From: a phage
Strand: one strand, 5' to 3'
NCBI GenBank assembly: GCA_014913405.1
Contig: GCA_014913405.1_3931.1
DNA: 64,000 nt
Shown here: piece by piece, positions 48,923 to 50,639 of the stretch
How positions within the stretch are numbered: position 1 is the stretch's first letter
Layout: each line of letters opens with the position of its first letter
Position numbers and translations under genes: made by a program
Notes under the pieces: generated by a model
Told to the model about the DNA's origin: nothing
Seen by the model: the letters and a program-made list of their open reading frames with translations, nothing else
Database searches by the model: none

Positions 48923-49000
48923 GGGAGATTGACGGTAATTGGTAAACCTACCATCCTTAGAAGTTGGTGTTTGAGGGTTCGAATCCCTTGTCTCCTACCA
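48923..49000 (+). tRNA. tRNA, anticodon probably TAG (Leu), non-canonical D region
   Basis: acceptor GGGAGAT/GTCTCCT, T-loop GGTTCGAATCC, candidate anticodon loop CTTAGAA; D arm does not fold canonically. Confidence 0.4.
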
Positions 49001-49007
49001 AATTAAT

Positions 49008-49083
49008 GCAGGTGTAGCAAAATGGTTATGCGGCTGACTCTTAATCAGTAAGACGATGGGTTCAATTCCCTCCACCTGTACCA
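49008..49083 (+). tRNA. tRNA-Lys (anticodon CTT)
   Basis: anticodon arm GCTGA-CTCTTAA-TCAGT, T-loop GGTTCAATTCC. Confidence 0.6.
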
Positions 49084-49089
49084 AACATT

Positions 49090-49165
49090 GGGGATGTAGT
49101 TTACATGGTTAAAACATAAGTTTTGCAAACTTAAGTACAGGGTTCAATTCCCTGCTTCTCCACCA
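49090..49165 (+). tRNA. tRNA-Ala (anticodon TGC)
   Basis: anticodon arm TAAGT-TTTGCAA-ACTTA, T-loop GGTTCAATTCC. Confidence 0.6.
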
Positions 49166-49171
49166 ATTAGT

Positions 49172-49246
49172 GCATCCATAGTTTAAACGGGAAAATTACA
49201 GTCTTCCAAACTGAGGTTGAGGGTTCGATTCCCTCTGGATGCTCCA
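49172..49246 (+). tRNA. tRNA-Gly (anticodon TCC)
   Basis: acceptor GCATCCA/TGGATGC, anticodon loop CTTCCAA, T-loop GGTTCGATTCC. Confidence 0.6.
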
Positions 49247-49252
49247 AACAAT

Positions 49253-49329
49253 GCTGCTTTCGTATAATTGGCTATTACACATCCCTTGTAAGGATGGAAA
49301 TGCAGGTTCGAGTCCTGTGAGCAGCACCA
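49253..49329 (+). tRNA. tRNA-Thr (anticodon TGT)
   Basis: anticodon arm CATCC-CTTGTAA-GGATG, T-loop GGTTCGAGTCC. Confidence 0.6.
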
Positions 49330-49425
49330 ATTCAGAGGTCAAGTGAAAGACCGCTTTGAGTCAACTGAAGACCGTAACAAATACCACGGAGTTGAGTTAG
49401 CGGCACAACTTCAGACCTCTTTCAT

Positions 49426-49500
49426 ACTCGCTTAGTTTATATGGTAAAACATCACCCTTACAAGATGAAGAAAAAGGTTCAAGTCCTTTAGTGAGTACCA
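49426..49500 (+). tRNA. tRNA-Val (anticodon TAC)
   Basis: anticodon loop CTTACAA, T-loop GGTTCAAGTCC. Confidence 0.55.
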
Positions 49501-49501
49501 T

Positions 49502-49579
49502 GTTCCAGTATCCCAATTGGCAGAGGATGCAAGCTCAAACCTTGTATTAGTGACGGTTCGAATCCGTCTTGGAACACCA
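49502..49579 (+). tRNA. tRNA, anticodon CAA (Leu), no long variable arm
   Basis: anticodon arm GCAAG-CTCAAAC-CTTGT, T-loop GGTTCGAATCC. Confidence 0.5.
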
Positions 49580-49584
49580 ATTTT

Positions 49585-49660
49585 GCAGGATTAGTTCAAA
49601 TGGAAAGAGCAACAGTCTACGAAGCTGTTAATAGGGGTTCGAATCCCTTATCCTGCGCCA
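49585..49660 (+). tRNA. tRNA-Arg (anticodon ACG)
   Basis: anticodon arm ACAGT-CTACGAA-GCTGT, T-loop GGTTCGAATCC. Confidence 0.6.
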
Positions 49661-49677
49661 GATAAAAAGGTGATACT

Positions 49678-49920
49678 ATGCAAACATTAACAGTAGTTGA
49701 ACATGAAAACTGTGAGAGTATTGAGTTTGTCAGGGTCATTGGTGTTGAACACCACATTTTCTTAAAAGTGGGATACTTATGTGACCCCGCTAGAGTAGAA
49801 AGATTTATACGTGATTGTTTTGGTGGTAGACATCTGAAGAGTGTTATTTTTGAGACAGTTTTACCAGAAGGTTTAGAAACGAATAATAACATTTACCTCC
49901 TTACGAGGATTAGACAATGA
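49678..49920 (+). CDS. hypothetical protein embedded in the tRNA cluster
   Basis: ORF track; RBS AAAAAGGTG. Confidence 0.4.
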   Translation: MQTLTVVEHENCESIEFVRVIGVEHHIFLKVGYLCDPARVERFIRDCFGGRHLKSVIFETVLPEGLETNNNIYLLTRIRQ

Positions 49921-50474
49921 GATACTTAAAGTATGCTTCATGGATTTTCTTAGCTTTGTTAGAGCCATTTGCAGCAATCTTAGCAGTTATCTTAGCACCT
50001 TTTGTAGTTCCATTCTACAGTGAGAAGAAAGGACACTTACCTTTCGGGTTCAGATGGATGGAGACATATGACAACCCAATTGATGGTGATGAAGGTCACG
50101 TTAAAAGATGGGCTAATATTAGATGGATTGGTAAACTAGGTGTCTACATGCAAAGAGTCGGATGGCTCTGGAGAAACAAAGCTTATAACTTCTCTTACCA
50201 TGTATTAGGAAGAGATGTAAGAGATGTTACTAAGTGGAAAGGTAATATCAACGTAAGTTCTAACCCTGAAGATAATCAGACTGGTTATCTCCTAATGTGG
50301 AACAGTAATGCTTGGGGATTATTCGCTTTTATCCCATCAATTAAAGTCTTCGGTAAACAGTTTTACTGGAGAATTTATGTTGGATGGAAACTTAAAAGTG
50401 TTGTCCCAGAAGAAAGAGCATTCTCAAGGGAAAGAGTTATGTTGGCATTCTTTATTCATCCACTGAGAAAGTAA
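49917..50474 (+). CDS. hypothetical membrane protein embedded in the tRNA cluster
   Basis: N-terminal hydrophobic helix WIFLALLEPFAAILAVILAPFVV; Trp-rich. Confidence 0.45.
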   Translation: MRYLKYASWIFLALLEPFAAILAVILAPFVVPFYSEKKGHLPFGFRWMETYDNPIDGDEGHVKRWANIRWIGKLGVYMQRVGWLWRNKAYNFSYHVLGRDVRDVTKWKGNINVSSNPEDNQTGYLLMWNSNAWGLFAFIPSIKVFGKQFYWRIYVGWKLKSVVPEERAFSRERVMLAFFIHPLRK

Positions 50475-50482
50475 AGATTTAA

Positions 50483-50558
50483 AGGGGATTAGTTTACAAG
50501 GTTAAAACCTCGGTCTTTGAAATCGAAGAAGTTGGTTCAATTCCAACATCCCCCGCCA
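50483..50558 (+). tRNA. tRNA-Gln (anticodon TTG)
   Basis: anticodon arm TCGGT-CTTTGAA-ATCGA, T-loop GGTTCAATTCC. Confidence 0.55.
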
Positions 50559-50560
50559 AT

Positions 50561-50639
50561 GCTCCATTACTCCAATTGGCAGAGAGGCCAGACTTAAAAT
50601 CTGTGTTATGTATCGGTTCGAATCCGATATGGAGTACCA
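50561..50639 (+). tRNA. tRNA, anticodon TAA (Leu), no long variable arm
   Basis: anticodon loop CTTAAAA, T-loop GGTTCGAATCC. Confidence 0.5.

Follow-up and report, generated by a model that had tools for sequence, protein, structure and literature searches.

Short leucine tRNA genes of type I form in the tRNA cluster of a Felix O1-like coliphage

Introduction

The window analysed here, a stretch of 64,000 nucleotides (nt) from phage contig GCA_014913405.1_3931.1 (GenBank assembly GCA_014913405.1), carries a cluster of tRNA genes, three of which combine a leucine anticodon with a variable region of only a few nucleotides. Are these genuine leucine tRNAs that have lost the long variable arm, or have they been folded wrongly? 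A first-pass annotation of the window had left exactly this choice, between atypical phage tRNAs and faulty hand folds. According to a 2023 review, tRNA-Leu is long-armed everywhere but in animal mitochondria (PMC9976931), and the one exception studied in bacteria was introduced as an unusual case (PMC6614811). Over the 3.5 kb surrounding the three genes, dozens of Felix O1-like myophages with E. coli, Salmonella or Shigella as hosts match the window at 94-98.5% identity (best match MH571750), and on this identity we assign it to Felixounavirus, as a Felix O1-like coliphage. Our analyses suggest, with a probability that we put at roughly 75%, that the three genes encode genuine, functional leucine tRNAs of the short, type I form, which have lost only the long arm.

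Results and Discussion

Leucine tRNA calls and anatomy

ARAGORN assigned leucine to all three genes, referred to here by their anticodons UAG, CAA and UAA, and gave each a standard 7-nt anticodon loop with U33 (Table 1; gene lengths are counted with the genome-encoded CCA). As cloverleaves, all three pass the gathering score of the Rfam tRNA model RF00005 (29 bits), with scores among the lowest of the window's tRNAs. Bacterial class II tRNA-Leu has a variable arm of at least 10 nt that forms a stem-loop. The phage genes have 5, 6 and 7 nt, whereas E. coli leuW, leuX and leuZ have 13-15 nt. All three phage genes thus correspond to type I, that is, a leucine anticodon with a stemless variable loop of about 5 nt, and no long tRNA-Leu was found among the ARAGORN calls of the window. 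The earlier hand folds, which gave anticodons TAG, CAA and TAA, lengths of 78-79 nt and variable regions of 5-7 nt, are borne out by ARAGORN, by Rfam and by a layout against the E. coli genes. None of the genes was moved to another isotype with a canonical structure, and atypical phage tRNAs, not wrong folds, proved to be the right choice.

The UAG gene has U8 G9 A, A73 and the D loop AAUUGGUAA(A); its variable region is UGUUU. Its 3-bp D stem, which reads CGG/CCU or, in a shifted register, GGU/ACC, is weak because the N:U pair of its 78-nt sub-form (see below) is a C.U mismatch in this allele. The CAA gene has U8 A9, the D stem UCC/GGA, the D loop CAAUUGGCAGA, a variable region AUUAGU ending in U48, and A73. 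The UAA gene has the same D loop on a CUC/GAG stem, together with U8 A9, a variable region GUUAUGU ending in U48, and A73. The CAA and UAA genes have the D-arm string CCAATTGGCAGAG in common.

Isotype scoring of the counterparts in phage Sf14 by tRNAscan-SE 2.0 placed leucine first for each (67.4, 49.1 and 60.2; PMC12482277); the paper is silent on the variable arm. Two observations would fit canonical tRNAs of other isotypes that had been misread by hand: the Rfam values are low (40-47.5 bits) compared to most tRNAs of the cluster, and the runners-up of Sf14 Leu(UAG) come close (Ile2 65.7 and Lys 63.4; PMC12482277). Against such a misreading stand the leucine anticodons called by ARAGORN, the first rank of the leucine model for all three Sf14 genes, the covariation in 110 and 57 relatives described below, and the public GenBank records, which already name these genes tRNA-Leu. 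We regard the misreading as barely credible.

Leucine identity elements

In E. coli, leucine identity depends on A73, A14, A15:U48, G18G19 and A20a and on neither the anticodon nor the long arm, and a tRNA-Leu truncated of its long arm remains active (PMC9976931, PMC6614811). In a comparison with leuW, leuZ and leuX of strain MG1655, the phage genes agree in U8, U48, A73, the acceptor stem and the 3-bp D stem, and only the 13-15-nt arm is missing from them. The 11-nt D loop aligns with that of E. coli as N13-A14-A15-U16-Y17-G18-G19-Y20-A20a-N21-A22. The identity elements of E. coli leucyl-tRNA synthetase (LeuRS), namely A73, A15:U48, U8:A14, G18G19 and A20a, are present in all three genes. Each has a Leu-type D arm, that of the UAG allele with one extra nucleotide and the mismatch. 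The E. coli genes share the anticodons UAG, UAA and CAA with the phage genes but are 85-87 nt long, and the CAA and UAA genes (type A below) have A9 and C13 in place of the G9 and R13 of E. coli tRNA-Leu. In animal mitochondria, type I tRNA-Leu resembles the phage genes in its short variable region and in an identity that rests on A73 and A14 (PMC9976931). However, it has degenerate D and T loops and a dedicated LeuRS, whereas the phage genes keep a full elbow (G18G19, UUCGAAU).

Type A: the CAA and UAA genes

The CAA and UAA genes belong to an architecture, here called type A, that consists of U8-A9, a D arm RYC-CAAYUGGYAGA-GRY and a 5-nt variable loop; the D arms of the window read YCC/CUC-CAAUUGGCAGA. 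IMG/VR was scanned for CCAAYTGGYAGAG followed 25-50 nt downstream by GGTTCGA, and at least 120 matches were obtained. Among the matches listed, the motif is nearly confined to short tRNAs with leucine anticodons (UAG 40, CAA 32, UAA 28, GAG 9 and CAG 8, with 10 non-Leu), and none of them is a long tRNA, although the gap in the pattern permitted one. ARAGORN recognized at least 117 short phage tRNA-Leu with this D arm in IMG/VR. The D arm shared by the genes at 49502 and 50561 had been singled out earlier as unusual; the shared string is there, but it characterizes a very large group of short tRNA-Leu and is no peculiarity of this phage.

An alignment of 110 unique phage sequences, with the CAA gene of the window as reference, has canonical pairs in 98% of its stem cells and 4-6 pair types at most stem positions. 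U8, U48 and A73, none of which was part of the search pattern, occur in 110/110 sequences each, and the variable loop is 5 nt in 106/110. The loci span 26-70% G+C. Five Felixounavirus/Mooglevirus loci have a CAA gene identical to that of the window and a UAA gene that departs from the window's at 0-1 positions, while the identity of the surrounding cluster DNA drops to about 90% (89.7% in Sf14). We read this conservation as purifying selection on both genes.

The same scan of bacterial contigs, one genome per species, yielded about 90 short chromosomal tRNA-Leu, mostly solitary, chiefly with UAA anticodons and mostly from Actinomycetota; it also matched canonical tRNA-Trp, which has part of the motif. 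Solitary short genes with the same D arm were found in Nocardia (L130), Mycobacterium (L133), Gordonia (L126), Arthrobacter and Bifidobacterium (L189), within loci L126-L245. They have the D arm GCC CAAYUGGCAGA GGC, as do both type A genes of the window. Streptomyces coelicolor has a type I tRNA-Leu(CAA) that likewise combines a leucine anticodon with A73, a U8:A14 core and a variable loop of 5 nt (PMC6614811); it seems to be one instance of a feature that extends across the phylum. The window genes differ from the actinobacterial ones in that they have variable loops of 6 and 7 nt and lie in a phage cluster, whereas the latter have 5-nt loops and are solitary and chromosomal.

Type B: the UAG gene

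By sequence, the UAG gene is of a separate, T5-like lineage (type B), being 84.6% identical to a 77-nt tRNA-Leu of BF23/T5-like phages. Its family has the D arm of an ordinary class II tRNA-Leu (U8 G9, RYG-GAAUUGGYAUA-CRY) with the long arm reduced to approximately RUUYU. An IMG/VR scan for this D arm found it in 74 short and 55 long phage tRNA-Leu, and type B therefore looks like a class II tRNA-Leu whose arm has been cut down. Among 57 unique 77-nt members, pairing is 98% and 17/20 pairs show at least three pair types. A73 is present in 56/57, and U8 and U48, which lay outside the search pattern, are invariant. The allele in the window represents a 78-nt sub-form, with one extra nucleotide ahead of a 3-bp NGG/CCU stem, that recurs in unrelated IMG/VR contigs (L380, L382, L392, L402, L410 and L417).

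The tRNA-Leu(UAG) of T5/BF23 (AJ604530, tRNAL1) is similar to the window gene in length (77-78 nt), U8 G9, the GAAUUGGYAUA-type D loop, a variable region NUUUU and A73, and its T arm GAGGG UUCGAAU CCCUU is identical. The window allele differs in the extra nucleotide and the D-stem mismatch. The two phages also differ in kind: that of the window is an Ounavirinae myovirus, whereas T5 and BF23 are Demerecviridae siphoviruses. A siphovirus-like UAG gene in a myovirus implies that the gene has been exchanged horizontally. Phages that are otherwise 95-97% identical carry different alleles in the UAG slot, with type B in the window and in FSL SP-010 and type A in KP869100, Sf14, Michonne and 3HA14. 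These alleles suggest, as far as sequences can tell, a cassette-like exchange of tRNA genes between phage families. The slot at 48923-49000 of the window was compared with L001 3024-3100, L005 4022-4098 and L002 641-719. The gene in the slot of FSL SP-010 is a third variant with a different anticodon stem, and the slot of Citrobacter phage Michonne directly adjoins a gene for an HNH endonuclease.

The resemblance of type B to a class II tRNA-Leu whose arm has gone (55 long and 74 short tRNAs with one D arm), together with the imperfect D stem of the window's UAG allele, could mean that the genes are decaying pseudo-tRNAs, left without function after the arm was deleted. Such decay is hard to reconcile with sequences that are identical or nearly so across genera, with about 98% canonical pairing and many compensatory pair types, and with A73, U8 and U48 being invariant (A73 in 56/57 for type B). 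The phage also has no long tRNA-Leu that could serve as the working copy, and the BF23 homologue works as a suppressor (see below). In addition, the short form is the majority form of tRNA-Leu in the sampled phage clusters, in which tRNA-Ser and tRNA-Tyr retain their arms. We therefore think it very unlikely that these genes are pseudo-tRNAs and favour functional leucine tRNAs.

Short tRNA-Leu in phages

Loci picked by the type A motif contain 178 short and 26 long tRNA-Leu, compared to 78 long and 6 short tRNA-Ser and 27 long and 5 short tRNA-Tyr. A second set of IMG/VR loci was picked by an unrelated 15-mer from the tRNA-Trp anticodon arm; with Felix-like contigs removed and unique tRNAs counted, it gave 26 short and 16 long tRNA-Leu, with long:short ratios of 28:1 for Ser and 8:2 for Tyr. 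Both sets of counts are small samples and no census. In the window's own cluster, ARAGORN found long arms in tRNA-Tyr (88 nt) and in two tRNA-Ser (90 and 93 nt). All Ounavirinae loci examined, those of Erwinia and Yersinia phages included, have only short tRNA-Leu, and Felix O1-like and T5-like coliphages carry no other form. Judged from these sequences, our results show that short tRNA-Leu is ordinary for phages, but not for bacteria outside Actinomycetota.

Charging by the host and proposed role

Based on the identity elements, we infer that the three tRNAs are leucylated by the host LeuRS and used in translation. According to the mechanism that we propose, they would be transcribed together with the rest of the cluster, host LeuRS would charge all three with leucine, and the charged tRNAs would read UUA/UUG (UAA and CAA anticodons) and CUN (UAG anticodon) in AT-rich phage messages. 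Leucine codons in the phage open reading frames (ORFs) are CUU 28%, UUA 24%, CUG 17%, UUG 14%, CUA 9% and CUC 7.5%. A Pfam scan of the window's five largest ORFs (at least 593 residues) revealed no synthetase domain in those five. Host charging has been approached for another T5 tRNA, since T5 tRNA-Phe was studied as a substrate of E. coli phenylalanyl-tRNA synthetase (PMC9976931). An indirect hint of activity in vivo comes from the BF23 homologue of the UAG gene, for which a GenBank record states that swapping the anticodon to CUA gave an effective amber suppressor.

Several observations weigh against functional, leucylated tRNAs. In one study, purified E. coli LeuRS failed to charge the type I tRNA-Leu(CAA) of S. 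coelicolor; the enzyme is described there as type II-only, and its C-terminal domain contacts long-arm nucleotides 47f-47i (PMC6614811). Failure of the E. coli enzyme on the Streptomyces tRNA means that loss of the arm is not automatically tolerated. The BF23 suppressor note names no inserted amino acid, and tRNAs with a CUA anticodon can be mischarged. Finally, the UAG allele has its weak D stem and the lowest Rfam score of the class I-length tRNAs. In the Streptomyces system, a single LeuRS serves short and long tRNA-Leu, and its leucine-specific domain is needed for the type I tRNA-Leu(CAA) (PMC6614811). The phage differs from that system in having no long tRNA-Leu at all and a gammaproteobacterial host, whose LeuRS reportedly fails on the type I tRNA-Leu of Streptomyces.

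Real tRNAs might instead owe their main value not to added decoding capacity but to an arm loss that lets them evade host factors acting on class II tRNA-Leu, such as tRNA-targeting defence nucleases or toxins; they would then sustain leucine decoding once host tRNA-Leu runs short, or act as decoys. As a variant, E. coli LeuRS may charge them poorly or differently. Escape of phage tRNAs from tRNA-cleaving defences is documented for other isotypes (PMC11555353, PMC11464382 and PMC12409363). Furthermore, the tRNAs of this phage cover all amino acids and not rare codons alone, arm loss is Leu-specific and recurrent in phages, and the E. coli enzyme failed on the Streptomyces tRNA (PMC6614811). 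However, no nuclease specific for the long arm of tRNA-Leu was identified in this analysis, and many Actinomycetota have a type A gene standing alone in the chromosome, presumably for an ordinary tRNA. Evasion would also be compatible with, rather than opposed to, normal leucylation. As the explanation of these genes, we consider it improbable, and ordinary leucine decoding by functional short tRNAs is the reading that we retain.

Parts of this picture are already known. The genes are deposited as tRNA-Leu, the T5/BF23 homologue has been handled experimentally, and type I tRNA-Leu is established for animal mitochondria and Streptomyces. In the searchable literature we found no description of phage tRNA-Leu as predominantly short, of two conserved phage architectures of which one is common with Actinomycetota, or of the tension between short phage tRNA-Leu and an E. 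coli LeuRS reported as type II-only. The short form is the commoner one in the sampled phage clusters and comes in two conserved architectures. This poses the question of whether E. coli LeuRS charges the short tRNA-Leu of coliphages despite failing on that of Streptomyces, and which nucleotides decide.

A tRNA-Trp-like gene

The first-pass annotation had also noticed a tRNA-Trp with an enlarged D region at 48483. ARAGORN in bacterial mode made no call at 48483-48565, down to -ps80, and RF00005 gave no match there; the only Rfam match was tRNA-Sec at 23 bits (gathering 47). In relaxed mitochondrial mode, ARAGORN called a tRNA-Trp(cca) at exactly these positions, and the minimum-free-energy fold is a cloverleaf. 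Together with the covariation described next, this call indicates that the gene is real. The linker between its acceptor and D stem is an invariant 10 nt, GAUGUUAAGA, where two nucleotides are normal (an 8-nt expansion). The element was found in 232 phage records, and 0/40 records listed have a tRNA feature under the match. One public record annotates a promoter at the gene; a promoter scan found sigma-70-like sites to be no more frequent than in shuffles (15 vs 13 ± 3).

The acceptor stem is AUGGGAC/GUCCCAU (A1-U72), with G73 and an encoded CCA. The D stem has 3 bp, which change from CUC/GAG to CAC/GUG between variants, and a GG-containing loop of 8 nt in the window and 8-10 nt across variants. 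The anticodon stem is Watson-Crick from 26-44 to 30-40, followed by a C31.A39 mismatch, and its loop is CUCCAAA with U33. The T stem has 4 bp; a possible G8-C65 pair would make an 8/4 arrangement. Eight sequence variants, among them those of Mooglevirus and a Yersinia phage, align with 99.4% pairing, a value reached by 0/500 shuffles, and sliding the partners collapses the pairing. Double-sided changes occur at 8 pairs (anticodon stem 4, acceptor 2, D stem 1 and T stem 1). Alternative D pairings, namely AUGUU/GGCAU, AUG/CAU and, as a relic of a canonical D stem, UGUU/AGCA, were rejected because they have mismatches in Sf14-type sequences, whereas CUC/GAG covaries with CAC/GUG.

Trp is the sole amino acid absent from the ARAGORN-called set of the window, and likewise in Sf14, for which tRNAs for 19 amino acids were counted (PMC12482277). 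Of the Trp identity set (PMC9976931, Table 1), C34, C35, A36, G73, A1-U72, G3-C70, G4-C69, G5-C68 and A9 are present, and G2-C71 is replaced by U2-A71. The gene is like bacterial tRNA-Trp in its CCA anticodon, G73, A1-U72, A9, encoded CCA and an anticodon arm near those of E. coli and of an Erwinia phage. It is unlike bacterial tRNA-Trp in its 10-nt linker (versus 2), 3-bp D stem, Watson-Crick 26-44, C31.A39, 4-bp T stem and U2-A71. On these sequence features we lean towards a working tRNA-Trp that would complete a 20-amino-acid set. The missing G2-C71 and the C31.A39 mismatch count against this, as does the fact that we found no precedent for the linker length; the gene with its 10-nt linker is, as far as can be told, a new structural variant.

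The gene could alternatively specify a tRNA-like non-coding RNA outside translation, for example the partner of the neighbouring RNA-binding protein (see below) or a processing signal. This would suit the invariant linker, C31.A39, the 4-bp T stem and the failure of standard tRNA finders on the gene. The cluster also holds other tRNA-like elements that are not tRNAs, and T5-like phages have annotated 'tRNA-like RNAs with unknown functions'. It would leave unexplained why the CCA anticodon is invariant among the variants and sits in a 7-nt loop containing U33, and why G73, the CCA end, A1-U72, G3-C70 to G5-C68 and A9 fit the set of bacterial tryptophanyl-tRNA synthetase. Moreover, Trp is the one amino acid missing from the called sets of both the window and Sf14, and in a related Erwinia phage a canonical tRNA-Trp has an identical anticodon arm, with C31.A39 as well. 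A role outside translation is thus possible but distinctly the less likely of the two, and we keep to a tRNA-Trp. Given a conserved Trp-type tRNA that goes unannotated in more than 230 deposited Felix O1-like genomes, statements that these phages have tRNAs for '19 amino acids' are probably wrong. Trp-anticodon tRNA-like genes without an ARAGORN call were also seen in IMG/VR loci L258, L324, L299, L252, L305 and L344, and non-canonical phage tRNA-Trp genes may be systematically under-annotated.

One can speculate that the arm loss of the leucine genes is adaptive and not drift, such that phages, among them coliphages whose host LeuRS is reported as type II-only, would keep and horizontally exchange a separate pool of short tRNA-Leu invisible to host factors that recognize the class II arm and still leucylated through the A73/D-loop core. 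The Trp linker GAUGUUAAGA would be no tolerated insertion but a functional handle that could serve, for example, the adjacent RNA-binding protein with DUF2828 (see below) or escape from a tRNA-targeting defence. As a whole, this proposal is tentative and rather unlikely.

The tRNA cluster and tRNA-Phe

The same cluster is annotated in KP869100, Sf14, Michonne and 3HA14. Table 1 lists its position and the genes discussed.

Table 1. Positions of the tRNA cluster and of its leucine, tryptophan-like and phenylalanine genes in the window
Feature	Position	Strand	Length	Calls and remarks
tRNA gene cluster	46624..51835	+		26 tRNAs by ARAGORN, 19 amino acids; Trp-like gene additional
tRNA-Leu(UAG), type B (T5/BF23-like)	48923..49000	+	78 nt	ARAGORN; Rfam 40.0 bits
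tRNA-Leu(CAA), type A	49502..49579	+	78 nt	ARAGORN; Rfam 44.0 bits
tRNA-Leu(UAA), type A	50561..50639	+	79 nt	ARAGORN; Rfam 47.5 bits
tRNA-Trp-like, anticodon CCA	48483..48565	+	83 nt incl. CCA	ARAGORN -mt; minimum-free-energy cloverleaf; covariation
tRNA-Phe(GAA), bulged A7	50834..50909	+		ARAGORN fold; Rfam 45 bits

The tRNA-Phe at 50834 had been described as having four nucleotides between acceptor and D stem. It does have an extra nucleotide near this junction, but a bulged A7 accounts for this better than a 4-nt linker. Nucleotide 8 and its partner on the 3' side, which precedes the discriminator by seven positions, read G:C in the window and U:A in Sf14, Michonne, 3HA14 and Erwinia phage SunLIRen. 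Because G8:C66 and U8:A66 covary, a 7-bp acceptor with a bulged A7 and a normal UA linker is favoured, and the model with a 6-bp acceptor and a 4-nt linker, as given by ARAGORN and by the first-pass annotation, was dropped. The T stem has three G-C pairs flanked by a non-Watson-Crick pair.

An initiator-like tRNA-Met (46877-46953, + strand) and the tRNA-Tyr (47183-47270, + strand) are further non-canonical members of the cluster. Both are ARAGORN calls that score below the Rfam tRNA gathering threshold; the former has U1 opposite C72, an unusual D arm and U73, and U is the discriminator in both tRNA-Met of the cluster. The non-coding gap past tRNA-Ile (47959-48263, + strand) gave sub-threshold Rfam matches to permuted transfer-messenger RNA (tmRNA; 29 bits, gathering 47) and tmRNA (15.7 bits), probably driven by a tRNA-like 5' part.

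Neighbouring elements and an upstream gene

Four stem-bracketed elements lie between tRNA genes on the + strand, at 46793-46865, 46960-47023, 47416-47489 and 47503-47634. Their outer 4 bp covary (UGAC/GUCA, UUAC/GUAA, GAGC/GCUC), and they have a 5' AGA bulge, a 7-bp stem AGACCNN/NNGGUCU and, just within the 5' arm, an invariant (U/A)ACAGCAA. Their conservation extends over Felixounavirus and Mooglevirus loci; the Yersinia, Erwinia and BF23 loci examined lack them. No credible Rfam family was found for them; only the Dictyostelium Class I RNA (consensus CCUUACAGCAA after its terminal stem) aligns, at chance level (12.8 bits, E = 8). The fourth element encloses, in order, a hairpin with 5 bp and a 7-nt loop, a T arm GAGGG UUCGAUU CCUUC, a closed acceptor-like hairpin ACUCGGC AGAU GUCGAGU and a D arm GUGU AAUGGUA GCAC. 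This layout of a circularly permuted tRNA follows the order of the tRNA-like module in YrlA, a bacterial Y RNA (PMC4201824). In YrlA-type RNAs the module (V, T arm, closed acceptor-like stem, D arm) lies within a terminal stem, with a Ro60 (TROVE) gene nearby on the same strand. The YrlA-type motif GNCGAAN0-1G was not seen in this element, and Rfam gave no hit.

Just upstream of the cluster, the gene at 45044-46459 (+ strand) encodes a protein of 471 residues with DUF2828 and DUF7788, classified as PHROG 850, 'RNA-binding protein'. Searches for a link to Ro60/TROVE, by phmmer against the PDB and in Pfam and NCBIfam at E <= 10, gave no match, and a single-sequence AlphaFold model of the protein was poor (predicted local distance difference test, pLDDT, 45). 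Immediately upstream of tRNA-Lys(UUU), at 47640-47776 (+ strand), the 15-nt arms of an inverted repeat, ATCTTTGTAGATAAG ... CTTATCTACAAAGAT, flank about 107 nt; this may be another stem-closed small RNA.

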